In this document: positions 14,153 to 63,895 of the stretch, piece by piece
Layout of the letters: each line of letters starts with the position of its first letter
How positions within the stretch are numbered: position 1 is the stretch's first letter
Assembly (NCBI GenBank): GCA_003574845.1
Contig: NDHY01000005.1
Coordinates: 3,342 to 67,341 of the forward strand
Origin: a candidate division NPL-UPA2 bacterium Unc8
GTDB taxonomy: Bacteria > NPL-UPA2
DNA: 64,000 nt
Direction of reading: 5' to 3'
Program-made: the position numbers and the translations under genes
Notes under the pieces: generated by a model
The model's database searches: none
Seen by the model: only the letters and a program-made list of their open reading frames with translations
Told to the model about the DNA's origin: nothing

Positions 14153-14262
14153 AGGTGTTAGGTGTTAGGTGTTAGGCGGTGCGACCCCGATTTGCATCGG
14201 GGCATGCTTATCGCACATTGTTTCTGAATTCTGGCTTCTGACTCCTGAATTCTGGCTTCTGT
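14149..14262 (+). repeat. purB leader: (TGTTAGG)x4, hairpin, TTCTGGC-family array
   Basis: 14149-14176 four perfect units; CCCCGAT-TTGC-ATCGGGG at 14185-14202; array 14222-14262. Confidence 0.85.
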
Positions 14263-14287: not shown

Positions 14288-15583
14288 ATGATTAAAAGAT
14301 ATACCCTTCCAGAGATGGGAAGCATCTGGAGTGATGAAAATAAGTTCAGAACAATGCTTGAAGTAGAAGTTCTTATCTGCGAAGCATTGGCTGAATTTGG
14401 TGAAATTCCTGCTCGCGCAGCCGTGAAGATAAGAAAAAAAGCAGACTTTGATTTCAAGAGAATTGCAGAAATTGAACAGGAAACGCGCCATGACGTTATC
14501 GCCTTCCTAATGGCAGTTGGCGAGAAAGTTGGCAAAGAGTCAAGATACATCCACCTCGGGATTACATCCTATGACATTGTTGATACCTCTCTTTCTTTAA
14601 GGATGAAGGAGGCGGCAGATATTATTCTTAAAGATTTGAAAAAGCTGTCTTCGGTCTTGAGGAAAAAAGCAAGAGAATATGAAAATACGGTAATGGCAGG
14701 TCGCTCACATGGCATCCATGCCGAACCAATCACATTTGGACTGAAGTTAGCTATCTGGCTGGTGGAAACGGAAAGAAACTTCAAAAGAATGCAGGCCGCA
14801 AAAGATGCAATAAGCGTAGGAAAAATCTCCGGTGCAGTAGGAACTTATGCCAACATTGACCCACGCGCCGAAATTTATGTATGTCAGAAGTTAGGACTTA
14901 CTCCAGCTTCTATTTCCTCTCAGATACTTCCCCGGGACTCTCACGCTCAATATCTTCTCACACTCTCTTTAATCGCAAGCTCCCTTGAGAAGTTTTCCCT
15001 TGAAATTCGCAACCTCAGCCGCACCGAGATTATGGAAGTGGAAGAGTATTTCTCTCCTGGACAGAAAGGCTCTTCAGCAATGCCGCATAAGCGCAATCCC
15101 ATTATCTCAGAGCAGATTGGCGGGCTCGCTCGTATCATCCGCAACAATGCTCAAGTAGCGCTTGAGAATGTTCCTCTCTGGCATGAAAGAGACCTTACCC
15201 ATTCTTCAGTAGAGAGAATAATTATTCCCGATAGCTGCATTCTCACTAACTATATCCTCAATAAATTTACTAATGTAATGAAAAATCTAATAATCTATCC
15301 GGAAAATATGATGAAAAATCTGAAGAAAACAAAAGGGCTTATCTTCTCTGAGGCTGTTCTCCTGAAACTGATTAAGAAGGGCCTAAGCCGTGAGGATGCC
15401 TATGTAATGGTGCAGCGAGCCTCTTTTCTCTCTAAGAAGGAAGGTAGGGAATTTAAGGATGTCCTCCTTCAAAATAAGGAAGTTATGTCTCACTTAAATA
15501 AAGATGAGGTAAAAGAATGCCTTGATTTGAAGCAAAACTTAAGACACATAAATAAAATATTCTCAAGACTGGAAATATCTTAA
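14288..15583 (+). CDS. purB: adenylosuccinate lyase
   Basis: MIKRYTLPEMGSIWSDENKF, ETRHDVIAF, GRSHGIHAEP, fumarate-lyase signature GSSAMPHKRNP. Confidence 0.97.
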   Translation: MIKRYTLPEMGSIWSDENKFRTMLEVEVLICEALAEFGEIPARAAVKIRKKADFDFKRIAEIEQETRHDVIAFLMAVGEKVGKESRYIHLGITSYDIVDTSLSLRMKEAADIILKDLKKLSSVLRKKAREYENTVMAGRSHGIHAEPITFGLKLAIWLVETERNFKRMQAAKDAISVGKISGAVGTYANIDPRAEIYVCQKLGLTPASISSQILPRDSHAQYLLTLSLIASSLEKFSLEIRNLSRTEIMEVEEYFSPGQKGSSAMPHKRNPIISEQIGGLARIIRNNAQVALENVPLWHERDLTHSSVERIIIPDSCILTNYILNKFTNVMKNLIIYPENMMKNLKKTKGLIFSEAVLLKLIKKGLSREDAYVMVQRASFLSKKEGREFKDVLLQNKEVMSHLNKDEVKECLDLKQNLRHINKIFSRLEIS

Positions 15584-15585
15584 AA

Positions 15586-15895
15586 AACAGGCACAAAGTA
15601 ACAAAGGCACAGAGGCACAGAGGCACAGAGAATTAAGTCGTAAGTCGTAAGTAGAGAGTAGAGAGAGATGAAATTGGAAATTGGTAATTGGAAATTGGAA
15701 ATTAGTGTTCTGGTGCACTATTTTGAAAAGGGTTCAAGGGTTCAAGTGTAAAGGCACAAACTTTTAACTTGCACTTTTGCCTTTTAACTTTTAACTTTTA
15801 AATTAGTTCTTAAATTGGTAATTAGTGATTGGTGGCCAGTTACCACCAGTTACTATTTACTAATCACCATTTACCAATTTATTTGAATTTACCCG
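15586..15895 (+). repeat. large composite heptamer region between purB and mrdA
   Basis: GGCACAG, AAGTCGT, AGAGAGT, GGAAATT, GGTTCAA, ACTTTTA, GTGATTG units in succession; final part quasi-palindromic. Confidence 0.9.
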
Positions 15896-18807: not shown

Positions 18808-18860
18808 AAAGGCACAAAGGCACAAAGTACTAACAGCCTAAACTAATAAGCTATTAGAGA
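18808..18860 (+). repeat. short heptamer array after rodA
   Basis: aaaggcacaaaggcacaaagt. Confidence 0.7.
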
Positions 18861-28600: not shown

Positions 28601-29533
28601 ATGAGGAGCCTAATCTCAATTCTTGATCTGAGTAGTGATGAGATAAGAGAAATATTTGCTCAGGCGGCAAGATTAAAGGCAGAAAGAAAAAGGTGGGAAA
28701 AATTACTTCGCGGGAAAACGCTTGGGCTTCTTTTTGATAAACCGTCTCTGCGTACGAGAGTGTCTTTTGAAGTTGGAATGCATCAACTCGGTGGATACAC
28801 TCTTTATCTTGGCCCCCATGAAGTAGGATTAGGGAAAAGAGAATCAGTAAAAGACATAGCACGTACTCTTTCTCGTTATCTTGATTGTTTAGTAGCGCGG
28901 GTATTTGACCACACAACCATTGTTGAGCTCGCTCGCGAAGCTGATATTCCGGTAATTAATGGGCTTTCAAATCTGTTCCATCCCTGTCAGATATTATCCG
29001 ATTTATTTACTATTATGGAAAAAAGAGAGAAAAAGCTGAAAGATATTAAGATTGCTTTTATTGGTGATGGCAGTAGCAATATGGCTAATTCCTGGCTTTG
29101 TGCAGCAGCACAGTTTAAAATTAACCTTGCTATCGCTACTCCTCAGAGATATGAACCTAATGCTGCAGTATTATTAAAAACGAGGGAAGCAGGTGGCAAA
29201 TCTTTTTTGAGGAACGTTTGCGTTCTTCGCGACCCGGTGGAGGCAGTAAAGGAAGCCGATGTTATCTACACCGATACATGGGTAAGTATGGGACAAGATG
29301 AAGAAAGGAAAGAAAGAAAAAGAGCATTTCGTCGTTTTCAGGTCAATGAAGAGCTGCTTCAGTCAGCCAAGCCTGATGTGATGGTAATGCATTGCCTGCC
29401 GCTTCATCGTGGAGAAGAAATAACTGATACAGTGATAGAGAGCCCGCAATCAATAATTTTTGACCAGGTAGAAAACAGACTTCATCTCCAGAAAGCGATT
29501 CTTCTGTTTCTCCTTGATAAGAAAACATATTAG
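28601..29533 (+). CDS. argF: ornithine carbamoyltransferase
   Basis: KPSLRTR, INGLS, HPCQ, YTDTWVSMG, MHCLP, ENRLH. Confidence 0.95.
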   Translation: MRSLISILDLSSDEIREIFAQAARLKAERKRWEKLLRGKTLGLLFDKPSLRTRVSFEVGMHQLGGYTLYLGPHEVGLGKRESVKDIARTLSRYLDCLVARVFDHTTIVELAREADIPVINGLSNLFHPCQILSDLFTIMEKREKKLKDIKIAFIGDGSSNMANSWLCAAAQFKINLAIATPQRYEPNAAVLLKTREAGGKSFLRNVCVLRDPVEAVKEADVIYTDTWVSMGQDEERKERKRAFRRFQVNEELLQSAKPDVMVMHCLPLHRGEEITDTVIESPQSIIFDQVENRLHLQKAILLFLLDKKTY

Positions 29534-29670
29534 AGACACAAAGGCACAGAGGCACAGAGGCACAAAGAAATAAGTGGTAAGTGGTAAGTGGTAAGTAGGG
29601 AGAGATGAAATTGGAAATTGGGAAGAGATGAAATTGGAAATTAGTAACTGGTGCTCTGGTGCTCTATTTT
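29534..29670 (+). repeat. composite heptamer element between argF and thyX
   Basis: (GGCACAG)n-(TAAGTGG)n-GGAGAGATGAAATTGGAAATTGG-CTGGTGCT. Confidence 0.9.
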
Positions 29671-32613: not shown

Positions 32614-33810
32614 ATGATTAAAGAGATAGCTGGAGGAGTTGCTGTTCCTCATGGTTTTCGTGCAGACGGAGTTAGCTGCGGAATCAAAAAAAACGGGAAG
32701 GACTTAGCGATTATCTCATCTGAGGTCAAGGCACGGGCAGCGGCTCTTTTCACCACAAACAAGCTCCAGGCTGCTCCGCTTAAAATTACTCAGAAGCACC
32801 TAAGGAATGGAATAGCACAGGCAGTAATCATCAATAGCGGAAATGCAAACTCTGCAACCGGAGAAGAAGGCTTAAGGGATGCCCGGAAAATGGCAAAGCT
32901 CACTGCAGTAAAGTTAGGAATAAAAGAAAGCGATGTCCTCGTTTCCTCTACGGGCATTATTGGAAAAAAATTGCCGATGGATAAAATCAAAGCAGGCATT
33001 GAAAAGCTCCTCCCGCGTGGTGGTATTAATGGAAGCAGGAAGGTTGCTGAAGCAATAATGACGACGGATACGCTTCCCAAGGAAGTAGCTGTCACCATAA
33101 AAGTTGGAGGGGAAAAAATAACAGTTGGTGCTGTAGCTAAGGGAGCAGGGATGGTCTCTCCTCATCTTGCAACAATGCTTTCCTTTATTACTACTGATGC
33201 TCTAATTACGCCAGCAGCTCTCAGCTATGTGCTCCGAAAAAGTGTGGAGACCTCATTCAATATGATCACTATTGATGGTGATATGAGCACAAATGATATG
33301 GTAGTCATTCTTGCCAATGGCCTGGCAGGAAATAAGGAAATAACCATGAAAGACCTTGTAAAATTTCAGGATGCAATTACATTTGTAACTTCATCATTAG
33401 CTAAGATGATTGTCAAAAATGCTGAAGGAGCAACGAAATTCGTAACAGTAAAAGTAAAAAACGCTCCTAATCTCAACGCGGCAAAAATGGCATCTCTGGC
33501 CATTGCCAAATCAAACCTTGTGAAAGCCGCACTTTATGGATGTGACCCAAATTGGGGAAGGATTATCTCTGCACTCGGCAGCTCAGGAATAAACATTAAC
33601 TCAAAAAAGATAGACATTTACATCGGAGGAGTAATAGTTGCCCAGAATGGAGTGATGACAGAATTTAACTCTCAAATGGTTAAGAAGAAAATGACTCAGA
33701 GGACTTTTACCATCCTTGTAGATATAAAAATAGGAAATGAAGAAGCAACGGCGTGGACGTGCGACCTTTCTGAAGATTATGTAAGAATAAACTCTTCCTA
33801 CTCAACTTAG
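32614..33810 (+). CDS. argJ: bifunctional ornithine acetyltransferase
   Basis: NSGNAN, SSTGIIG, AIMTTDT, KGAGM, PHLATML, DGDMSTND, DPNWGR, CDLSEDYVRIN; ATG at 32614. Confidence 0.96.
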   Translation: MIKEIAGGVAVPHGFRADGVSCGIKKNGKDLAIISSEVKARAAALFTTNKLQAAPLKITQKHLRNGIAQAVIINSGNANSATGEEGLRDARKMAKLTAVKLGIKESDVLVSSTGIIGKKLPMDKIKAGIEKLLPRGGINGSRKVAEAIMTTDTLPKEVAVTIKVGGEKITVGAVAKGAGMVSPHLATMLSFITTDALITPAALSYVLRKSVETSFNMITIDGDMSTNDMVVILANGLAGNKEITMKDLVKFQDAITFVTSSLAKMIVKNAEGATKFVTVKVKNAPNLNAAKMASLAIAKSNLVKAALYGCDPNWGRIISALGSSGININSKKIDIYIGGVIVAQNGVMTEFNSQMVKKKMTQRTFTILVDIKIGNEEATAWTCDLSEDYVRINSSYST

Positions 33811-33842
33811 AATTAAAGAGGTCAGACCTCAATATTCATTAA

Positions 33843-33997
33843 AAAGGCACAGAGTGGCAAAGGCACAAAGGCACAAAGAAATTCAAAAATCAAAAGTCAA
33901 AATTACAATGCAAAGCTTGTGCTGAATTTATTTCAGTATGCAAAATTCAGTGATTAGTGATTGGTGACCATTGACTGTTGACTATTGACTATTGACC
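33843..33997 (+). repeat. composite heptamer region after argJ
   Basis: GGCACAA, CAAAAAT/CAAAAGT, AGTGATT, TTGACTA units; hairpin at 33920-33938. Confidence 0.85.
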
Positions 33998-34004
33998 AAT
34001 TTTT

Positions 34005-34033
34005 CTGACAGGATTTTGGGTGTGTGGTACACT
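34005..34033 (+). promoter_or_regulatory. possible promoter at left end of island
   Basis: CTGACA-17 nt-TACACT, preceded by TG. Confidence 0.4.
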
Positions 34034-34059
34034 TCAAAGCAGAGAAGGTAAGAAAAAAG

Positions 34060-34266
34060 ATGATGAAATTAGTGAATAAAAAGGGTTTTACACTGATTGG
34101 AGAAACTATTGTAGATGATAATATCTACCTCTTAGGTAACAGTCTGTGGGTATTCAAACTAGCGAAGGATGTTGTCTTGATAACCTTTGGCAAAGATTTA
34201 GATACTGCAAAACATTTCGTTAATAAGAATTTCCCAGACAAAACAAGGAACCACTATTATGTATAA
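34060..34266 (+). CDS. small hypothetical protein with prepilin-like leader (KKGFTLI), possibly a remnant
   Basis: MMKLVNKKGFTLIGE...; lacks Glu+5 and the hydrophobic helix. Confidence 0.35.
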   Translation: MMKLVNKKGFTLIGETIVDDNIYLLGNSLWVFKLAKDVVLITFGKDLDTAKHFVNKNFPDKTRNHYYV

Positions 34267-34684
34267 TCCGCCAAAACCAGAAGATTATACCCACCCGGAA
34301 GAAAAGAATGCTTTAATTAAATCCATTATTATCATGGTTATAATTCTTTTTATCTTGTCCGCATTTTCTTTTGGGATCGCATTAATTATTGTCGCTATAG
34401 GTTTAGGATATATTAGGATGCTCCAAGCCCGGCTATTAGGTGATTCAGCATTGGTCACGCGGCATAACTATGCAAAAATTGACAATCTTATCAATTTGGC
34501 TTGTCAGCGGTTAGGTGAAGAGAGACCTAAAGGCCATGTCGTTCAAGACCCCTATTTAAACGCTTTCGCACTCGGTTTTTCTTATCCTTTTTCCACGGTG
34601 ATACATTCTGCAACTATTCAGGCTATGGATAATGAAGAACTGTCATTTATCATGGGTAAAGGGGACAGACACCTTTTCTATTGA
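34259..34684 (+). pseudogene. M48-family (HtpX-like) metallopeptidase, truncated
   Basis: TM helices, then VVQDPYLNAFALG...VIHSATIQAMDNEELSFIMG; breaks where HExxH is expected, at the RAYT left repeat (34657). Confidence 0.75.
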
Positions 34685-34709
34685 CATATAGCTGCCACCA
34701 CGATATAAT
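34681..34709 (+). promoter_or_regulatory. consensus sigma70 promoter of RAYT, leaderless mRNA predicted
   Basis: TTGACA-17 nt-TATAAT; ATG follows 6 nt after the -10 with no SD. Confidence 0.75.
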
Positions 34710-34715
34710 ATCTTC

Positions 34716-35381
34716 ATGCCTAGACAAGCACGTATAGTCATACCTGAATTAGCACATCATATAACCCAGCGTGGTAATTACCGCCAGAATATCTTCGATA
34801 ATGAAGGTAATTATAGACAATACTCTAAATGGATAAATGAATATGCTAAAGAAAACAGCATGGATATATTAGCTTATTGTTTAATGAGTAACCACATACA
34901 TTTTATAGTAATTCCTAAAAAAGAAGAAGACTTGAGCAAAGTATTCAGAACCGCCCATATGCGTTATTCACACTATCTGAATCGGCAAAGATCAGCTAAA
35001 GGACATCTTTGGCAAGGAAGGTTTTATTCCTGCATATTGGGTGATAGCCACTTATATAGAGCGATAAGATATACTGAAAATAATCCTGTACGTGTAAAAA
35101 AAGTAAAGAATGCCTCAGAATATGAATGGTCAAGCGCTAAAGATCACACAGGATGCAGGAATAACAAACCTTTAATCAAGTTAGGCAAATATAAAACAAT
35201 AGAAGAAAAAGGATGGAAAGATTACTTAAGAGAAGATGATCCTGAGATGACCGAAGATATTAGATTAAAAACAAATAGAGGATTAGTTGTAGGTACAGAT
35301 AAATTCATAAAGAAACTGGAAAGAACATTAAATCGTTCCTTGAAGTGTTTAAAGCAGGGAAGGCCGAGGAAAGATAGATAA
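34716..35381 (+). CDS. REP-associated tyrosine transposase (Y1 HUH, RAYT-like)
   Basis: MPRQAR...HHITQRGNYRQNIF, AYCLMSNHIHF (HUH), GHLWQGRFYS, RYTENNPVR, YEWSS, C-terminal GRPRK. Confidence 0.9.
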   Translation: MPRQARIVIPELAHHITQRGNYRQNIFDNEGNYRQYSKWINEYAKENSMDILAYCLMSNHIHFIVIPKKEEDLSKVFRTAHMRYSHYLNRQRSAKGHLWQGRFYSCILGDSHLYRAIRYTENNPVRVKKVKNASEYEWSSAKDHTGCRNNKPLIKLGKYKTIEEKGWKDYLREDDPEMTEDIRLKTNRGLVVGTDKFIKKLERTLNRSLKCLKQGRPRKDR

Positions 35382-35549
35382 AAGGTGTCTGTCCCCTTTA
35401 TGACGACGTTTCTCCTCCTGCTGGGTGGTGGCTACCTCCCCGTGCTCGCGAGGCTTGGTTGGCTTGGCAGTTTTTTCGATGGGTTTTTCGATGGATTTTT
35501 CGACGCTAGACTGGATACCAGAGACAAATAACTATCACAGGAGGAAAAG

Positions 35550-36212
35550 ATGAAAAAAGTCATAGTGATATTCTTCATTTTGGCCATGGCTCTGGGGACA
35601 ATCTTTCTGGTGACGAGACCAGAGAGGAAAGAGCTGGTAAGAGTAACGCTTCAAGAGAGTTTAGGTGAGCCAGAGAAGCATGTAATTGTTATTAACGGAG
35701 AAGAGTATTCCTTCCTTCTTAGTAGATATGACCCTCCCTTTTTCTCTACTGAACTGGTAACTAGAGATGAGCAAGACCTCTCTACTCCAGAGGGAACGGT
35801 TCTTGCTAGGTTGTCTGCTGTGATGAGCAACGACAGAGATTGGCGCCTGTCTCTTCTTGAGGAGGACGTGCGAGAACGTAACCGTAGAGATCCAGAAGAA
35901 GAGAGAATAATTAAAGAGCACCTTAAAAGAATGCCTTTGCTTGATCCCCTGGAGAATTATCTTATACTCCTGTTCAAAGTAGAGTTCGAGTTTGAGGGCA
36001 AAAAATATGCCCTGATTCGGGACAGAGCCGTCGTTAGGGGAGTAGAGCAGCCTGGCATAGGCACTGTAGCGCTTGTCAAGCAAGGAGACATTTGGTTGGG
36101 AACAGACGACGTGTGGAAACACCCAATATTAGACCTCGTTATGCGTAGCTATGAAGAACTCAGGGAGATATTAAAAGAAGGAACCTGGGACCGGAGGCAC
36201 CGAAGACGATAA
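35550..36212 (+). CDS. hypothetical membrane-anchored/exported protein (paralog A)
   Basis: SD GGAGG; N-terminal MKKVIVIFFILAMALGTIFLV; shares motifs with 36471-37217. Confidence 0.75.
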   Translation: MKKVIVIFFILAMALGTIFLVTRPERKELVRVTLQESLGEPEKHVIVINGEEYSFLLSRYDPPFFSTELVTRDEQDLSTPEGTVLARLSAVMSNDRDWRLSLLEEDVRERNRRDPEEERIIKEHLKRMPLLDPLENYLILLFKVEFEFEGKKYALIRDRAVVRGVEQPGIGTVALVKQGDIWLGTDDVWKHPILDLVMRSYEELREILKEGTWDRRHRRR

Positions 36213-36216
36213 AGAG

Positions 36217-36450
36217 ATAGCTGCCACCTTTACCTGGAGCTTGCGCCCAGACCCAGAGTTCCCGGGAGCTTCGGTATTACCCGGGCCCGGCCCAACCACA
36301 ACCCTTACTACAACCACTGGCAAGACAGGAAAAGGAGAGATAATTGCCCGGGAGGTGCGACTCGGTGAGGAAGGAAAAGCTGATGTTGTAGTAGGCTATG
36401 CAAAACTCTTATACATTAAGGCCGTTGACCTTTCTGCCCATTTTAATTAA
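36217..36450 (+). pseudogene. 3' fragment of a larger gene (beta-strand/Ig-like, Thr-rich)
   Basis: Open frame IAATFTWSLRPDP...GPTTTLTTTTGKTGKGEIIA...; no SD or good start; ends 20 nt before paralog B. Confidence 0.4.
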
Positions 36451-36470
36451 ATAAAAACAGGAGAGTCGGG

Positions 36471-37217
36471 ATGAAAAAAAGAAGACTAATTTCGCTCGTT
36501 GTTATCGCCGCTTTAGTTGCTATCACCGCTTTATCTATTATCTTCATTGAGGGGCAACCAGGAGGCCGGGGGCCCTTTAACCTGACCAGTCCCCAGAGAA
36601 GAGTGGTAGAGATCGGAGGAGAAGTATACTTCTTCCTCTTGTTTAAATATGACCCCCCTCTCTACTTCCCCCCTTATCTATTAGAAAGCAGAGAAGAGCA
36701 AGATCTTTCTACCCCGGAAGGTAACATTATTGCCACGCAGTCTGCTTATGGACGAGACAGAGAGTGGTATATCTCTTTACATGATGAAAGTGCTCAAAAA
36801 TGGCTCTTTAAACTTGATGAACTAAGTGAGGGAAGGACATTGGGAGAGTATCTTAAAGGAACTCCCTTACCCAACCCTTTAGAGGAAACCCATGCTCAGC
36901 TTTTACACAAAGTAGAATTCCAAGTAAATAATAGGAAATACGCCGTAATTCAGATGAACCTGGTTTTTGATGGCGAAGTAATTGATGCTGGCGCCCAGTC
37001 CTTTGTCAAACAAGATGGTATTTGGTTAGGGACCGGCGATTTAGTAGGGAATCTTTTAGCATTTCTTGTTGGCACAGAAAGCTATGATGAGCTAATACAG
37101 ATGTCCCTATGTAAAGAGACACTCCTAAAACTGATTTTCACCTTGATTGTAGTTATTTTAATTGCAACCTTCTTTGGATTAAGGTTGATTTTAAAGAAAA
37201 AAGCAATTACTGGTTGA
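36471..37217 (+). CDS. hypothetical membrane-anchored protein (paralog B) with extra C-terminal TM
   Basis: SD GGAG; MKKRRLISLVVIAALVAITAL; YDPP, EQDLSTPEG, KVEF, KYA, VKQ..IWLGT shared with paralog A. Confidence 0.75.
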   Translation: MKKRRLISLVVIAALVAITALSIIFIEGQPGGRGPFNLTSPQRRVVEIGGEVYFFLLFKYDPPLYFPPYLLESREEQDLSTPEGNIIATQSAYGRDREWYISLHDESAQKWLFKLDELSEGRTLGEYLKGTPLPNPLEETHAQLLHKVEFQVNNRKYAVIQMNLVFDGEVIDAGAQSFVKQDGIWLGTGDLVGNLLAFLVGTESYDELIQMSLCKETLLKLIFTLIVVILIATFFGLRLILKKKAITG

Positions 37218-37421
37218 TAGAATACTTTAAAAACAATCAGCCCACTTCTTTAGCAGGAACGGTTCTATTTTTCTTGACACGCCACAGAAAAACCAGCGAT
37301 AGACACTATTTTCTTAACCCCTTGCCGGGAAGAAAACAAAGTCAGACCTCAACAAAATGAGTGAGTAGTGAATAGAAAGTTTGGCTGATAGCCGCTACGC
37401 TCATGGAAAAGGAAAACCTTC

Positions 37422-37796
37422 CTAGGAGCCTTTCTTCCCACCTTTTTCCACCAGCTCAATGAGAACACAAGGGGCATTATCTCCCGGGCGCGGAGATATA
37501 TGGACAAGGCTGGTATAGCCACTTTTTTGATCTTTAAAACGAGGGGCAATCTCTTTAAAAAGTTTCCTGATGACTTCTTTGTCCCCAATCACCCTTCCAA
37601 CGTTTCTTACTGATGAGAGGTCACCTCTTTGAGCAGTCGTGATGAGCCTCTCGGCCATTCTTTTTAATTCCTTCCCTCTCGCTTCCGTTGTCCTTATCCG
37701 CTCTTTAACAAAGAGAGCCTTCAGTAGATTGGCTAGGAGGGCATGGCGATGCCCTCTTGGCAAACCCAATTTTTTAACGCCTTTTTTATGTCTCAT
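37422..37796 (-). CDS. rplQ: 50S ribosomal protein L17
   Basis: MRHKKGVKKLG, ERIRTTEARGKEL, RPGDNAP; ATG at 37796. Confidence 0.96.
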   Translation of the reverse strand: MRHKKGVKKLGLPRGHRHALLANLLKALFVKERIRTTEARGKELKRMAERLITTAQRGDLSSVRNVGRVIGDKEVIRKLFKEIAPRFKDQKSGYTSLVHISPRPGDNAPCVLIELVEKGGKKGS

Positions 37797-56160: not shown

Positions 56161-56535
56161 TTAACCTTTTGGTCTTTTTGCTCCATAGTGTGAGCGACTC
56201 TTTCTTCTTCCTTCCACCCCAGCAGTATCAAGTACCCCTCTTACCACATGATATCTTATCCCAGGAAGGTCTTTCACGCTTCCTCCACGGACAAGGACAA
56301 TGGAATATTCCTGAAGATTGTGCCCAATACCCGGGATATAAGCGGTTATCACCATTCCATTAGAGAGTCTCACACGAGCTACCTTACGTAAGGCTGAATT
56401 GGGCTTCCTAGGGTTCATCGTGCTCACCTTAAGGCAGACCCCCCTCTTCTGGGGAGAACAGCGAAGGGCAGCTCTCTTTGTGCTCTTTCTTCCCTTTTTT
56501 CTTCCTTTTCTAATTAATTGATTTAACGTCGGCAT
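56161..56535 (-). CDS. rpsL: 30S ribosomal protein S12
   Basis: [21 protein letters not shown]. Confidence 0.97.
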
Positions 56536-59500
56536 CTATTGCTATATGGTAATGATGACTCATCCCCGTACCAGCAGGGATGAGACGTCCTAAAACCACA
56601 TTCTCTTTTAAGCTTTTTAGTTCATCCTTTCTTCCATTAAAAGCAGCATCGGTAAGAACACGAGTTGTCTCCTGAAAAGAGGCAGCAGCAATAAAGCTAT
56701 CTGTAGATAGAGAAGCCCTTGTAATTCCTAATATCACCGGGGCCGCCCTGGCAGGTCTCTTTCCTTCGGTTTTAAGCTTTTCATTTTCTTCCTCAAATTT
56801 CCACCTATCAATCTGATCTCCAATTAAAAATGCAGTGTCTCCTTTATTTTCAATCTCAATCCGACGTAACATCTGCCGGATGATTAACTCAATATGTTTA
56901 TCATTAATTGTTACACCTTGCAACCAATAAATTTCCTGAATCTGATCAATGAGGTGCCTTTGAAGATTCTTTATGCCCCTTACTCTCAATATATCCTGGA
57001 GCACAACTGGTCCATCAGTCAGTGGCTGACCTGCGCTGACCATCTCCCCCTTATAAATGGTCATATGTTTCCCCGGAGGAACAAGATACTCCCTTTTCAT
57101 CCCTGTTTCCTCATTCTTTACAATAATTTTTCTTTTCTCTCCAACCGACTCAGTAAATTCCACTATTCCGTCTATCTCAGTAATAACTGCTGGGTTCTTT
57201 GGTCGGCGAGCTTCAAATAATTCTACTATTCGCGGAAGGCCACCGGTAATATCAACAGTTCCAGCAACTTCCCGTGGTGTCTTAGATAGTAAATCTCCAG
57301 GAGAAACCCTGTCTCTTTCCCGAACAACTATACATGCCCGAGGTGGAAGTCCATAGTAACCAAGAATTTGTTTACTGGCATCTCTGATTACAATTTGCGG
57401 ATGAAGGTCTGCTTTGTGTTCAGTAATTACCTTTGTCGTTAGCCCGGTTGCTCGGTCAAACTCCTCCTGGACCGTCACCCCAAGTACAATGTCTTCAAAT
57501 TCAACATTTCCCTCAATCTCACTCAAGATAGGCCGCATATACGGGTCCCAGCTCGCAAGTAAATCTCCTTTGGCAACACTCACTCCACTCTCACAAGCGA
57601 TTACTGCCCCTGGAAGAACTATGTGTCGCTCAAGTTCCCCTCCTTCCTTATTGCAGATGAGAATAGCGCCATTGCGATTAAGCACAATGGTTTGCTGTTC
57701 CTTGTTTTTAATCGTTTTTAATCTATAATAGTGGACAACACCATCATCACGAGCAAAAGCCGCTGACTGTTCTATAACTCGTTGAGCTGCCCCTCCGACA
57801 TGGAATGTCCTCATTGTCAGCTGTGTTCCTGGCTCACCAATACTCTGAGCAGCGATTACCCCTACTGCTTCCCCGAGCTCAACGAGGTGGCCAGTAGATA
57901 GATTGCGGCCATAACATCGCCGGCAGATCCCCTGTCTTGTTTCACAAGTTAAAGGAGAGCGCACTTTGACTCTTTCAATCCCTGCTTCCTCAATCACATC
58001 TGCCAGTTCCTCTGTTATTTCATCTCTGTTCTTAACTATAATATTGCCTAATTGCGGAATAATGATATCATCGCATGCTATTCTTCCCACCACTCTTTTT
58101 CCCAGAGAAACGAGCTCCTCCATACCACCATAGATTGCTTCTACTTCAATGCCATTTGGCGTCCCACAATCCTCCTCAGTAATTATCAAATCCTGAGCAA
58201 CATCCACTAACCTTCGTGTCAGGTAGCCGGAGTCAGCTGTTTTTAACGCTGTATCAGCTAAGCCCTTTCTTCCTCCATGGGTAGAGAGAAAATATTCAAG
58301 GGCTGTTAACCCCTCACGGAAATTAGCAGTAATTGGAGTCTCAATAATTTCTCCAGATGACTTGGCCATTAACCCACGCATCCCCCCTAATTGTCTGATC
58401 TGTAGCCGTGAACCACGCGCTCCACTATCAGCCATCATAAAGATTGAATTAAATTGACCATCCTTACTACTTTTCTCCATCTGCTCAAAAACAAGGTTAG
58501 AAATTTTATCAGTGCAGCGGGTCCACAGGTCAATAATTCTATTGTGCCTTTCCCCGTTGGTAATCAGCCCACGATGATATTGTTCCTTAATTTCATTAAC
58601 TTTACCCTTTGCTTCCTTTAAAATACTATTCTTCGCCGGTGGAATTACACTATCATCAATAGCAATAGAAATCCCTGCAGTTGTAACAACCTCAAAACCA
58701 ATATCCTTGATACTGTCTAAGAGCTGCACTGCCTCTTCAGCGCCACACTGGCGATGAACAATGCCAATAAGATGAGAGAGGTCAGACTTCTTCAATTCCT
58801 GATTAACGAAGGGAATTAGGGGAGGAAGCAGAGTATTAAAGATGACTCTGCCAACCGTGGTTGTCACTAACTTTCTCCCTCTGCATATCTTTATCATGGC
58901 CTGGATATCAACATAGCCATTCCTCCAGGCAATCTCAACCTCGCCAGGGTCAGAGAATATTTTGCCCTCTCCCTTTGCTCCAGCTCTCTCTTTTGTCAGA
59001 TAGTAGCAGCCAAGAACAATATCCTGGGTAGGAACCGCAATCGGCTCACCACTCGCTGGCGAAAGGACATTGCGGGAGGAGAGCATAAGAAGATAAGCCT
59101 CCATCTGCGCCTCAGTAGAAAGCGGAATGTGAACAGCCATTTGGTCTCCATCAAAATCTGCATTAAAGGCAGTACAAACCAAAGGATGAATGTGAATGGC
59201 ATTCCCTTCTACCAGGGTAGGCTGAAATGCCTGAATACCAAGACGATGCAATGTTGGCGCTCTATTCAGAAGGACCATGTGGTCTTTAACAACCTCCTCT
59301 AAAATCTTCCATATCTCATGCCCTATTTTTTCGAAGGTGCGCTTAGCACCTCTAATAGTGTGTGCTAATCCACGTTCTCTTAGCTTTTCAAGAATAAATG
59401 GCTCAAATAATTCCAGTGCCATCCTCCTTGGAAGCCCGCATTGAGAGAATTTAAGCTTTGGGTTGACAACAACAACCGAGCGCCCTGAGTAGTCCGCACG

Positions 59501-62500
59501 TTTGCCAAGGAGATTCTGCCGAAATCTTCCCCCCTTTCCTTTAAGCACATCACTTAACGACTTTAGCGGCCTATTTCCTGCCCTTACTATAGGTTTTCCG
59601 CGACATCCATTGTCAAAGAGAGCATCAACCGCCTCCTGTAGCATCCGCTTCTCATTGCGAATGATAATCCCCGGAGTAACTGGGTCCTGCAGCAATTTCC
59701 TGAGCCGACTATTCCTGTTTAGTATACGGCGATATAGGTCATTCAGGTCTGATGTGGCAAATCTTCCTCCATCGTCAAGTGGAATAAGTGGGCGCAGATC
59801 AGGAGGAAGAACAGGAATTACATCCATAACCATCCACCCTAACTTATTATCTGATTGGCGAAAGCCCTCTACTATCCTTAATCTCTTCATAATTCGTAGT
59901 TGTGCCGACGAAGAAGTAGCTTTCTCAAGACCGGCGCGGAGAGTTGCCACCAGTTCATCAAGAGAGACCATCTCTAACAGCTCCCTAATCGCCTCGGCTC
60001 CTATCTCTGCTTTAAAGCAGGAACCAAACTGCTTTTGGTACAGCCAACGTTCCTCTTCCATTAGCAAGGTTCCTTTTTTTAACCCACTATCTCCTGGGTC
60101 AATTACTACGTATTTTTCATAATAAATTACCTTTTCAAGGTCGCGCATACTCATTTCCAGTATTGCTCCGATACGAGAAGGAACAATCCTAAAGAACCAG
60201 ATGTGAACAACGGGACATGCTAACTTTATATGTCCCATTCGCTCCCTTCTCACCTCCGAGCGAGTAACCTCAACCCCACAATAATCACAGATAATTCCCT
60301 TATGCTTAATCCTTTTGTACTTACCGCAATGACATTCCCAATCGTGGGCAGGGCCAAAAATCTTTTCACAGAAGAGCCCATCCTTTTCAGGCTTAAATGT
60401 TCTATAGTTTATAGTTTCAGGTTTCTTTACTTCACCACGTGACCAGGAAAAAATTGCCTCTGGGGAGGCAATGCCAATTGAGATATTGCCAGTATCACGT
60501 CTTGACAAAAACACTTTTTCTCCTACTTTTTCTTCATATCTTATGTCAAGACAGAGGCTTTGTAGTTCGCGAGTGAGAACATTAAATGATTCCGGGGTGC
60601 TTGGTGGAAAAGCGTTTTCTCCCTTAACAATTGACTCGTACATTCTTGCGCGACCGGCTACATCGTCGCTCTTTACAGTAAGAAGTTCCTGTAAGATATG
60701 GGCGGCTCCATATCCCTCAAGCGCCCATACCTCCATTTCGCCAAATCGTTGCCCTCCAAGCTGAGCTTTACCGCCAAGTGGCTGCTGGGTAATAAGAGAG
60801 TAGGGCCCAGTTGCCCTGGCATGAACCTTCTCGTCAACCAGATGATTCAATTTCATTATGTAGATGTACCCAACCGTTATCTTATTGGTAAATGGCTCAC
60901 CGGTGTAGCCGTCATAGAGAGTAGTTGTGCCATTCTCCGGGAGGCCAGCACTGCAGAGTAAGTCTTTAATGTCCTTCTCCTTGGCTCCATCAAAGACAGG
61001 GCTTGAAACATATATTCCCATGGCATGAGCAGCCCAGCCAAGATGAGCCTCTAATATCTGCCCAAGAGTCATTCGGGAAGGAACTCCCAGTGGGTTAATG
61101 ACAATCTCTACAGGTGTCCCATCAGGCAGATATGGCATATCCTCCTCGGGAAGTATGCAGGAGACTACTCCCTTATTTCCGTGTCTTCCAGAAAGCTTAT
61201 CGCCAACCTGCAACTTCTGCTTTACTGCAATATAGACCTTAGCTACCTTATTGACCCCAGAAGAAAGAGTGGTAGTGTTAAGCGCTCCACTCTGGCGTGA
61301 GAAAACCCGGACATTAATAACCGTTCCGCCGCCGCCAGGGGGAACCTTCAAGGAAGCGTCACGCACATCACCCGCTTTTTCCCCAAAGATTGCCCTCAGA
61401 AGTCTATCCTCAGGCAACAGCTCTGTCTCACCTCTCGGAGCTACCTTACCTACAAGGATATCTCCTGGATTCACCTCTGCTCCAATGCGCACAATCCCAT
61501 TCTCATCAAGGTTTCCAAGAGTATCTTCACTAACATTCGGGATGTCTCTTGTTATCTCTTCCGGCCCAAGCCTTGTATCACGCTCCTCAACTTCAAACTC
61601 CTCAATATGGATTGAAGTATAGATGTCATCTTTAACAATCTTCTCGCTGATCAGAATAGCATCCTCAAAGTTATAGCCACGCCAAGGCATAAATGCTACC
61701 AGGACATTCTTTCCTAATGCCAGCTCCCCGCCAGATGTCGCCGGACCATCAGCAATTATCTCTCCAGCCTTCACCAAATCACCAGGATAGGTAAGTGGCT
61801 TCTGGTTAAGAGAAATATTCTGATTTGAACGGTAAAATTTCTGCAGCGGGTATTTTCTTGTGCCAGATCTTCCCCGAATAATAATTTCATCAGCAATGAC
61901 CCGCTCTACTCTTCCAGCAGTCCGGGCAATGACTGTCGCACCAGCATCACGGGCAACGGTGGACTCCAGCCCCGTTCCCACCAATGGCGCCTCTGTCCTC
62001 AAGAGTGAAACTGCTTGTCTTTGCATATTTGACCCCATCAATGCCCGATTGGCATCATCATGCTCAAGAAATGGAATAAGGCCAGCAGAGACGCTCACCA
62101 GTTGCAAGGGAGAGACATCCATGTACTCTATCTCATGCGCGGGCTTCATAATAAAGTCATCCCGGAAGCGAGCAAAAACCTCTTCATCCTTAAGCCGACC
62201 TTGTTCATCAAGCTCTGTATTTATCTGTGCAATAAAATAGTTATCCTCAACATCAGCGGAAAGCCATGCAATCTCATTGGTAACCTTCCTGTCCTTCACC
62301 TTGCGGTAAGGAGTTTCCAGGAACCCATACTTATTGGTTCGCGCATAAGTAGAAAGCGAGACAATAAGCCCGATGTTCAGTCCTTCAGGAGTCTCCACAG
62401 GACAGATTCTCCCATAATGCGAGAAATGAATATCCCTTGCTTCAAAGCCTGCTCTCTCTCTACTCAACCCTCCGGGGCCAAGAGCAGAGATACGACGCTT

Positions 62501-63895
62501 ATGCGTTAATTCAGCCAAAGGATTTATCTGATCCATAAATTGGGAGAGCTGACTGCGTCCAAAGAAGTCTTTGAGGACGGAGGAAACAACTTTGAAATTA
62601 ATCATATTTCTTGGCCAGAGGTCAGTTAATTCCCGACTGTTCATTTTTTCCCTAATATTCCTCTCCATTCTCGCAAGGGCAATGCGGAATTGGGCCTCAA
62701 CAAGCTCTCCAACTAACCTCAGGCGACGATTGCCAAGGTGATCAATGTCATCAACTGAGTTATCCCCGCTCTCTAACTTGAGTAGGTAGCGGAGAATTCC
62801 AGCTAAGTCTTCTTTCCTCAAAGAGGTCATGTTTTCAGAAACGTTTGTCCCTAATCTTTGATTTAACCGATGGCGACCAACACGGCCTAAACTGTAATAG
62901 TTAGAACTAAAAAATAGCCTCTGGAAATATCTACTCGCACTTTCAGTAGTTGTCGGTTCTCCCGGACGGAGTCGCTGATAAATCTCAATGAGAGCCTCCT
63001 CCCGGGTACAGCAATGATCCATTTTTAAGGTATCGATAATTGATTTTCCCTCTTTCGTAAGGATAATTAGCCTGAGGTTGGTTCGTTCTTTGGCAATCTC
63101 AGCTAAAATCTCAGCATTCAACTCAGTTCCAAGAGGTACACTTGCCCCCTCTCTAATGATGACACTTTCAGCGAGAAGGCGACCAATTATCTTCTGATTC
63201 TCCTGAAGAGTAGCGCCCAGTTTCACCATCTCAATATCGTAAAAGAGTTTTATGATTTCCTCATCTGAAGAATAGCCAAAGGCACGCAAGAACGTAGTTG
63301 CTAAAACCCTACGGCCCCTGTCAATCGTTACCCAGAGAAGACCGTGACGATCAAACTCAAACTCTATCCACCCTCCGCGATGAGGAATAATCTTTGCTGA
63401 GTAGAGCCTTTTCCCACTGGAATGCACCTTCTCATCATAAAAGACACCAGGAGAGCGGTGTAGTTGACCAACGACGACGCGTTCAACTCCATTAATGATA
63501 AAGCTACCATTCTCACTCATCAGAGGAATCTCTCCAAGATACACCTCTTGCTTTCTGATATCTTTATCCTCACCGCCTTTATCATGCAGGACCAGCCTCA
63601 TCCTTGCCTTAAGTGGAGCAGCATAGGTCATCCCAATTTGCTGGCAATCTTCAATGGTATACCCTGGTTTTTCAATAGAGTAATTTAAAAACTCAAAGGA
63701 ACATTTTCCATCATCAGAAGTGATTGGGAATATTTCTCTGAAAACAGCCTCCAGCCCCTGCTGCCGCCTCTTATCAGGATGCATCTTTTCCTGAAGAAAT
63801 TCATCATACGAGTGTTTCTGGAGCTCTACAAGGTCAGGAGGGTCCATCACCACAGGAATCCTGGCAAACCCTTTCCTTTCAATCATTTGCCTCAT
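56510..63895 (-). CDS. rpoBC: fused RNA polymerase beta-beta' subunit (1127-aa RpoB part + 1334-aa RpoC part)
   Basis: One ORF containing RpoB motifs ([38 protein letters not shown]) and RpoC motifs ([31 protein letters not shown]). Confidence 0.95.

Follow-up and report, generated by a model that had tools for sequence, protein, structure and literature searches.

Two short genes coding for related membrane-anchored proteins follow each other in the genome of the candidate division NPL-UPA2 bacterium Unc8, each preceded by a stretch that reads like the end of a gene with no start, and both lie downstream of a RAYT-like transposase gene. Is this locus an array of cassettes put together by the transposase, or is it what remains of genes that formerly stood there? 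An earlier note, written from the letters alone, leaned towards the former, describing serially captured modules that resemble orphan toxin-tail/immunity or surface-protein/partner arrays. Here we report a computational analysis of the locus in the window, by which we mean the whole stretch of 64,000 nucleotides (nt) analysed (contig NDHY01000005.1). The two genes are called P1 (35550–36212, + strand) and P2 (36471–37217, + strand), and the startless stretches before them tail 1 (35402–35531, + strand) and tail 2 (36217–36450, + strand). All together, our data favour, with moderate confidence, gene decay in a strain-variable island beside a mobile transposase, and not an assembled cassette array.

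P1 and P2 belong to a rare family of exported proteins

P1, of 220 amino acids (aa), and P2, of 248 aa, are true paralogs, as shown by a BLASTP alignment over 210 residues with 39% identity (E 6e-35). Every motif by which the earlier note had paired them (YDPP, EQDLSTPEG, DR(D/E)W, KVEF, KYA and VKQ..IWLGT) falls in an aligned column, and the membrane anchoring proposed there agrees with the hydrophobic N-terminal helix present in both proteins. P1 consists of this helix and a domain of ~190 aa, and its C-terminus (LKEGTW..) is the native KEGxW end of the family, so that P1 is complete (hidden Markov model of the family members, E 8e-61). P2, also a complete member (E 2e-68), carries a second hydrophobic helix at its C-terminus, the two helices spanning residues 2–26 and 215–247 in an AlphaFold2 model; this C-terminal membrane helix is shared by P0009 and P0014.

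The family is a rare one. Word-indexed protein searches returned 1 and then 7 relatives, and the family emerged only in an exhaustive profile search of representatives covering 1.84 billion proteins, which gave 65 representative clusters (13 at E ≤1e-30). Members are typically 200–250 aa long, begin with a signal peptide, a lipobox or a membrane helix, and share the motifs YNLxxPE, KYDPPY, STPEGT, RDxDWYLSLxDE, YKVEF..GKxYAII, FVKQGxxWL and KxGxW; the invariant Y, P, P, E, S and W residues are all retained by P1 and P2. Neither protein matched any Pfam, NCBIfam, PADLOC or PDB sequence profile.

A conserved gene for a large secreted protein precedes the family members

Following the earlier note's proposal that homologs be inspected for a conserved upstream gene, a partner gene was found in six unrelated metagenome contexts (L008, L009, L012, L013/L014, L021 and L022), in which a family member lies 3–42 nt 3' of a gene for a large secreted protein; the downstream genes were verified by the member profile (E 7e-82 and 8e-74). 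The partner, 358–824 aa long (742–824 aa in the largest cases), is made of a signal peptide, a variable set of immunoglobulin (Ig)-like domains (PKD, Big_1/Invasin_D3, Big_2) and a ~320-aa C-terminal domain, hereafter the C-domain, which starts with AKLSYIEAVDxxDxxRRSxxxLQMVS and ends with VW(E/D)GIxGxxTVDLSxxF. The C-domain is the conserved part of the protein (37–55% identity), the N-terminal Ig part being variable, and P0073 consists of a signal peptide and the C-domain alone. No Pfam, NCBIfam, PADLOC or PDB match was obtained for the C-domain. The likeness to surface-protein/partner systems noticed from the letters fits this architecture. In conclusion, the partner and the P1/P2-type gene form an undescribed, rare and conserved two-gene module.

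Close to the intact pair of L022 we also observed, at 4024–5668, a 261-aa gene with no family match followed by an AbiEii-family toxin gene (Pfam). These two genes could be an AbiE-type toxin–antitoxin pair, in which case the surroundings of the pair in L022 may likewise form an island of the variable or defence type.

Tail 2 as a relic of the partner gene

Tail 2 can be read as ..TFTWSL.., followed by a degenerate PKD-like part and then by VVVGYAKLLYIKAVD joined to LSAHFN-stop, the start of the C-domain (..YAKLLYIKAVD) being fused directly to the last 6 codons of that domain. It covers positions ~67–129 of the partner profile plus the last 6 residues and was the top match to that profile among ~1,270 six-frame decoys, with an E value of 0.046–0.06 compared to 2.7 for the best decoy.

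The strain comparison, which was carried out on contig-level data (metagenome contigs and unitigs of mixed strains), provided a less eroded version of the same sequence. Specifically, the sister contig L001, on which P2 is identical, retains a further ~330 nt framed by two CCGTTGACC copies, and the deletion junction of the window maps to this microhomology, at ~36421–36430. When the tail of L001 was compared with a partner profile built without it, three matches appeared, to positions 113–147 (E 3.5e-11), 148–175 (E 6.9e-9) and 362–429 (E 1.3e-15). These fall in three successive reading frames, and positions 176–361 are missing, so that the L001 tail is a pseudogene carrying two frameshifts and a large internal deletion. 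A further variant of tail 2, diverging after 36238, was found in run X4.

On these data, tail 2 is a coding relic of the upstream partner gene; the intact partner, the L001 tail and the tail of the window represent successive stages of one decay series. The outcome by which the earlier note would have been refuted, homologs standing alone and tails lacking coding homologs, is thus not what was observed. The description of the tails as captured or orphan modules was not upheld, as they appear to be deletion relics of genes formerly in place, with an intermediate for tail 2 kept in L001.

Tail 1 and its truncated upstream sequence

Tail 1 gave a different picture. In L020, an allele free of the RAYT-like gene, the tail 1 sequence runs at least 105 nt further upstream, starting exactly at the position taken in the window by the right end of the transposase element, and two frames of this extension are open to the contig end. 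What the window keeps as tail 1 is therefore the 3' terminal part of a longer sequence that the element has cut. The 12-nt repeat reported in the earlier note is real (TTTTTCGATGGA, 35472–35503, 2.7 copies, 95% matches), and its core is hypervariable: the three alleles available (window, L020 and X5) differ by many substitutions, and in length by exactly 3 nt, steps that may hint at a coding past. In L005 and in run X4 an unrelated 106-nt spacer stands in place of tail 1.

Relationship of tail 1 to the partner gene was considered and rejected as unsupported. To the eye, the L020 extension looked like the partner C-terminus, but profiles of the partner C-terminus and of the full partner gave no match in any frame. 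Likewise, tblastn of tail 1 against all the compared loci found no match, and codon-usage scoring did not separate its frames, none of which gave a coding signal above background. The unit of a tail and an exported paralog described in the earlier note stood for the second cassette, with its conserved partner and its relic in tail 2; for the first, no link between tail 1 and the partner family was found. Both tails are startless as described there, tail 1 by truncation.

The same results bear on another possibility, namely that the tails are non-coding spacers and that P1 and P2 are independent duplicates lacking any partner. The lack of coding signal and of homologs in tail 1, Pfam, NCBIfam and PADLOC searches that found nothing in either tail, and the P2-like gene of L015–L019, which has no partner upstream, would all fit. 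We regard this as the least probable of the explanations considered here, hardly tenable in general and refuted for tail 2, given the scores of tail 2 and of the L001 tail against the partner profile, which exceed those of the decoys by a wide margin. The partner found upstream in six independent loci also speaks against it, and so do the 3-nt length steps of tail 1 and its continuation in L020.

The 106-nt spacer (L005, 909–1014) has hairpin-like inverted repeats of its own (ATGTCC..GGACAT), and its 3' end, TCCCCTTTAT, repeats the 10 nt that close the RAYT-like element on the right. This spacer may be another REP-like unit, distinct from that of the element.

The RAYT-like element and the truncated M48 gene

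The element spans 748 bp (34654–35401, + strand) and is self-contained, comprising hairpin repeats at both ends, a promoter of its own and a transposase gene. The gene (34716–35381, + strand) codes for a 221-aa HUH/Y1 protein matching Pfam Y1_Tnp (E 5.5e-17); the NCBIfam model REP_Tyr_transpos gave 73.3 bits (cut-off 80) and the IS200 model 29.8 bits (cut-off 55). It is preceded by a sigma-70-type promoter (34681–34709, + strand) formed by TTGACA, 17 nt and TATAAT, with 12/12 consensus matches. The terminal repeats are a perfect 21-nt inverted pair, the left one (TAAAGGGGACAGACACCTTTT, 34657–34677) being 100% complementary to the right one (35380–35400); each folds into a small hairpin, with AAAGG/CCTTT as the left stem. 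With up to 3 mismatches allowed, no other copy of these repeats was found in the 64 kb of the window.

On its left, the element adjoins the N-terminal fragment of an M48/HtpX-type peptidase gene (34259–34684, + strand, 141 aa), which matches Pfam Peptidase_M48 with 22.7 bits (cut-off 20.3) over profile positions 21–70 of 186 and, weakly, NCBIfam HtpX models. This open reading frame (ORF) corresponds to the N-terminal third of the protein and stops just short of the expected HExxH motif; its last ~9 codons and stop are supplied by the left repeat of the element. Judged from these sequences, the element truncates both the M48 gene and tail 1. Instead of the builder of an array, as had been proposed, it would thus be an agent of insertion and rearrangement.

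Developed further than in the earlier note, that proposal would have the transposase line up modules of a tail and a gene, leaving its recognition sequence (ATAGCTGCCACC or ..CCTTTA) at the joints. The 12-mer does have exactly two copies in the window, in the promoter spacer of the transposase gene (34688–34699) and at the start of tail 2 (36217–36228), and ..CC-TTTA, a trivially short string, is indeed present before both tails. The caution that the 12-mer might be due to chance proved justified: shuffled sequences gave a mean of 0.24 matches, with 2/100 reaching two, an estimated ~0.3 exact repeated 12-mers are expected by chance per 3-kb stretch, and other such repeats exist, for example AAAGCAGAGAAG. 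As a recognition site it was discarded, being at chance level and with no hairpin like that of the inverted repeats at 36212–36234. The latter region is 74% complementary to the left repeat and was also considered, and rejected, as a decayed element repeat, since 36205–36240 forms no comparable hairpin and, read in frame, belongs to the partner relic.

Other arguments for assembly by the transposase come from the recent mobility or recombinogenic nature of the element and from the sharp edges of the first cassette, where the homology between alleles ends at the P1 ribosome-binding site (35538) and just past the P1 stop. In addition, the element lies directly 3' of a P1-like gene, P1', in L005 and L006, and a RAYT-like gene lies directly 3' of a distant operon in L009, where the member is ~30% identical and the transposase 47% identical to that of the window. 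The hairpins flanking the L009 gene are homologous and show compensating changes in the stem (AAAGG/CCTTT to AATAGG/CCTATT). Even so, we consider assembly very improbable: in the transposase-free loci L008, L012, L013, L021 and L022 partner and member form an ordinary conserved operon, tail 2 arose from such an operon by deletions of which L001 keeps an intermediate, and the window holds one element only and no dispersed copies of its repeats.

Another reading of the two adjacencies is that the element is no chance neighbour of the gene pair but functionally tied to it: it would shuffle, duplicate or switch the cassettes of members from strain to strain, and the small genes that survive would make up a variable immunity or surface-recognition repertoire against a new class of secreted beta-rich effectors in a deep-branching candidate phylum. 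It is prompted by the finding of a RAYT-like gene directly 3' of a member, with co-varying hairpins, in two very distant lineages. Two adjacencies are too few for a functional link, and we hold this reading to be decidedly unlikely.

The island varies between strains

Contigs bearing the same genes come from metagenome-assembled genomes and metagenomes of serpentinite-hosted groundwater. The sole species-representative match was Candidatus Psychracetigena formicireducens BS525, of Ca. Lithacetigenota, a candidate phylum reported only from serpentinite springs (PMC9751293), and scans of genome and metagenome contexts with the family found nothing beyond contigs of Ca. Psychracetigena formicireducens.

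By comparing these contigs, the element was found 100% identical over exactly 34654–35401 in L005, where both flanks are different, and it is also present in L004 and L006. Among the co-occurring strains it has at least 3 left and at least 2 right contexts. Specifically, on the left it borders the M48 fragment in the window and L004, and the 3' end of P1' in L005, L006 and X5, where the joints differ slightly and come in three forms; on the right it borders either tail 1 (window, L004, L006) or the unrelated 106-nt spacer (L005, run X4). The left flanks end in ..ATGG, ..TATGG, ..ATAGG and ..TAGGA, which is suggestive of a target, the cases being too few to define one. L020 carries a P1' allele with no element on either side.

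Junction variants were found in runs X1, X2, X4 and X5. In X1 the element has a depth of ~28, compared to ~25 for its single-copy neighbours, ~9 for the M48–element joint and ~11 for the joint between the P1' stop codon and the element; the latter joint has depths of 8.6 in X2 and 7 in X5, and the element–L005 spacer joint reaches 26.5 in X4. The M48 fragment has a depth of ~9 against ~25 for single-copy DNA in X1/X2 and of 0 in X4/X5, a pattern indicating that it is strain-specific. P1-type sequence in X4 has a depth of 43–115, or 2–5 times single-copy, compared to 20–26 for P2 and the element, so that populations differ in how many member genes they carry. In conclusion, the stretch between argJ and the rplQ-rpoA operon is a strain-variable island, and the number and order of its units vary across strains, a comparison that the earlier note had called for.

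A 10-nt direct repeat, CACCACGATA, was noticed at the end of P1' and again within the promoter of the element (..GCTGCCACCACGATATAAT), in L006 (25–125) and L005 (140–215). The left repeat and the -35 box lie between its two copies, and it may be a microhomology used in joining the element to P1'.

Expression, fold and possible role of the small proteins

P1 and P2 are both intact and transcribed. In the RNA run X3, whose metatranscriptome contigs cover the whole stretch, the contig depth, a rough guide to expression at best, was ~90–200 over tail 1 and P1 (P1 ~90–126), ~35 over the element and ~24 over P2.

The AlphaFold2 model of P2, obtained from a 52-sequence alignment (predicted local distance difference test, pLDDT, 93.3; predicted template modelling score, pTM, 0.80), places a beta-hairpin, three helices and a sheet of four strands between the two membrane helices. 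A Foldseek search of the PDB gave a best E of 0.02 and a best template modelling (TM) score of 0.47, with no match at E ≤0.001, and a search against viral structures returned nothing useful. Nearly all the better-aligned matches are NTF2-like, namely 2jq5 (probability 0.95, TM 0.47), 3k7c, the N-terminal domains of PBP2a and PBP5, Csd6 and Bd1075; in addition, 2 of the 52 family members, both distant, match SnoaL_2 at 6e-5. The predicted fold of P1/P2 thus looks loosely NTF2-like, an assignment that is reasonable and unproven.

Some relatives carry extra domains (GspG pseudopilin, thioredoxin-like, Ig-like or beta-rich extensions), and the pseudopilin, thioredoxin-like and extra beta fusions favour a role in the envelope or in assembly. 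As the partner has no recognised anchor and the surface motifs of the members are strongly conserved, these fusions with envelope machinery lead us to propose, tentatively, that the small protein is a tether or assembly aid for an adhesin-like surface protein, which we take as its most likely role. Immunity against a beta-rich secreted effector comes next; it fits the surviving orphan small genes, the allelic amino-acid variation and the precedent of Imm-NTF2 (PMC3482391), and appears doubtful to us.

A related reading concerns the whole locus, which would be an orphan toxin/immunity array: an envelope-targeting toxin, for example one whose beta-rich C-domain inserts into membranes after delivery by Ig-like binding domains, would have been lost, and the exported immunity proteins P1 and P2 kept against toxin-making neighbours. 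Several features are in line with it. In every intact pair the small exported gene lies directly 3' of the partner; NTF2 is a known immunity fold (Imm-NTF2, Imm-NTF2-2; PMC3482391); the small genes are intact and transcribed, both upstream genes being wrecked; the locus is strain-variable; and a weak hint of a MipA-like beta-barrel comes from the partner C-domain. The allele differences of P1 are, moreover, almost wholly amino-acid changes, with 15 nonsynonymous versus 2 synonymous differences in one pair and 12 versus 0 in another, although this excess is not significant for 15:2 (binomial estimate ~0.23) and marginal for 12:0 (~0.05). P2 is invariant across the four copies compared (identical in L001, L002 and L003). 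We judge the toxin/immunity reading of the locus unlikely, since its architecture is the reverse of that of polymorphic toxins, with the C-domain conserved and the N-terminal Ig part variable. The stubs retain no usable toxin domain, there is no toxin, PADLOC or Pfam match, and conserved surface motifs together with pseudopilin, thioredoxin-like or Ig-like fusions are unusual for immunity proteins.

A model for the decay of the island

On the explanation that we prefer, gene decay, the island would formerly have held two copies of the conserved two-gene operon. The first gene would have coded for the large secreted protein, in which Ig-like/PKD domains in variable number stand between the signal peptide and the ~320-aa C-domain, and the second, 3–42 nt further on, for an exported protein of ~200 aa that an N-terminal helix, signal peptide or lipobox keeps at the membrane and that has a compact, NTF2-looking alpha+beta domain. 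Both first genes would have been destroyed and both second genes, P1 and P2, left intact. The partner of P2 was worn down by frameshifts and successive deletions, one of them between 9-nt direct repeats, to the 234-nt in-frame stub of tail 2, and the sequence before P1 was cut by the 748-bp RAYT-like element. Movement of this element, or recombination promoted by its hairpin ends, may account for much of the rearrangement. In the intact pairs, the small protein may work on the outer side of the membrane by binding the conserved part of its partner, the C-domain.

Several observations weigh against this model, or against parts of it. No similarity of tail 1 to the partner family was detected, which leaves only one of the two operons proven. 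The strain picture comes from mixed-strain contigs and unitigs, which may be chimeric; the junctions do recur in independent runs. No excision joint or circle joint of the element appeared at the contig level in the DNA and RNA runs. The ends of L005 (QLTW01000388.1, 1–1610) overlap by ~90 nt of P1-type sequence with few mismatches, which could represent a collapsed tandem [P1-RAYT]n, two near-identical members flanking the element, or a circular form. Small proteins serving only lost partners would be expected to decay as well, and the changes among P1 alleles would fit relaxed or diversifying selection, with no recent purifying selection.

Furthermore, metagenome scaffolds labelled BRAZ22 (L015–L019) carry a P2-like gene of 84% identity that is split into two ORFs of ~95 aa, and it is preceded not by an Ig-domain partner but by a gene for a 209-aa membrane protein. 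The C-terminal part of this last protein (..RLDGTVETVSEY..) may resemble pseudopilin-like 'H-X9-DG' proteins. As for the two proteins of the module, the NTF2-like assignment, at a best Foldseek E of 0.02, is not statistically significant; the sole outside hint for the C-domain is a sub-threshold MipA match (E 0.004); and its modelling, from a 4-sequence alignment, gave no usable structure (pLDDT 32).

Composition and surroundings of the locus

On the + strand, the order of genes begins with argC and argJ (end 33810), followed by a low-complexity intergenic stretch and a small ORF (34024–34266) before the M48 fragment; beyond P2 lies the convergent rplQ-rpoA-rpsD-rpsK-rpsM operon. The G+C content is 45–53% in the part from P1 to tail 2 (comparing 35400–36900 with 34650–35400), 32–36% in the element and the M48 fragment taken together, 33–36% in the element itself, and ~40–45% in the flanking core genes, a mosaic that suggests separate origins for the parts of the island. 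A six-frame scan of the 64-kb window detected no further copies of the module and no full-length partner, and an Rfam search of 33700–37500 gave nothing useful.

Short tandem repeats with 7–8 nt units (AAAGGCAC, AAATTGG, TGACTAT, AGTGATT, GGCTTCTG) occur in many intergenic regions of the window (6375–6442, 14208–14261, 15581–15705, 18810–18847, 29526–29651 and 33837–33996). In the metagenome runs the k-mer depth of 33900–34016 is ~586, compared to ~25 for single-copy DNA, and many contigs end there, indicating that these intergenic repeats are genome-wide and mark assembly breakpoints.

Elsewhere in the window (56510–63895, - strand), one ORF of 2461 aa is a fused rpoB-rpoC, with RNA polymerase beta (Rpb2) at residues 22–1121 followed by beta-prime (Rpb1) at 1137–2398, all domains being present. 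It lies just upstream of genes resembling rpsL, rpsG, fusA and tuf by position and size only. Fusions of rpoB and rpoC are reported in just a few lineages, such as Helicobacter and Wolbachia.

Comparison with known systems

Nothing here overturns current understanding. What the locus offers is, first, a newly defined gene pair, neither protein of which has a Pfam model or a solved relative, with a confident model of the small protein and intact pairs to hand. Second, it catches, in a natural population, a RAYT-like transposase that appears to behave as insertion sequences do, in contrast to the immobile domesticated genes as which RAYTs are usually described (PMC5581495). Third, it calls for caution in annotation, as startless ORF stubs beside intact small genes may be deletion relics of an operon partner and not exchangeable cassettes.

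RAYTs are described as immobile, vertically inherited, single-copy, housekeeping-like domesticated genes (PMC5581495). With them the element shares the HUH/Y1 domain, RAYT being its best NCBIfam model at a score just under the cut-off, a gene flanked by inverted hairpin-forming repeats, and a depth close to single-copy, RAYTs having about one copy per genome (PMC5581495). It differs in that no dispersed REP/REPIN copies are found in 64 kb, and in that the whole 748-bp unit, promoter included, occurs in several contexts among near-identical strains, a behaviour resembling that of insertion sequences. IS200/IS605 elements have multiple copies per genome and insert beside a short target with no duplication of it; the element has one copy in the window, single-copy depth and left flanks suggestive of a target.

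The likeness of the locus to the orphan toxin-tail/immunity arrays of contact-dependent inhibition (CDI) and Rhs systems (PMC3482391) is superficial. Startless 3' fragments and small genes in tandem are common to both, as are strain variability and the existence of NTF2-fold immunity proteins. The fragments found here, however, are eroded relics with 6 C-domain codons left and not complete, exchangeable toxin domains; no full-length gene stands upstream, nor is there a recognised toxin or trafficking domain; and polymorphic toxins combine a conserved N-terminus with a variable C-terminus, whereas the partner has its C-domain conserved and its N-terminus variable.

With the extracytoplasmic NTF2-like domains (PBP2a/PBP5, the LD-transpeptidases Csd6 and Bd1075, and SnoaL-like proteins), P1 and P2 share the same topology, an N-terminal membrane helix followed by an alpha+beta domain. 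The structural similarity is weak (TM ≤0.47, E ≥0.02), and P1/P2 have an extra N-terminal beta-hairpin bearing the YDPPY motif, no attached enzyme domain, and no Pfam, NCBIfam or PDB sequence match. Finally, the intact partners share a signal peptide and PKD, Big_1/Invasin_D3 or Big_2 domains with surface adhesin-like PKD/Big arrays. They differ from these in ending in an uncharacterised C-domain instead of an LPXTG motif, an S-layer homology (SLH) domain, an autotransporter barrel or a type IX secretion system (T9SS) sorting domain, and in being always paired with a small exported protein.

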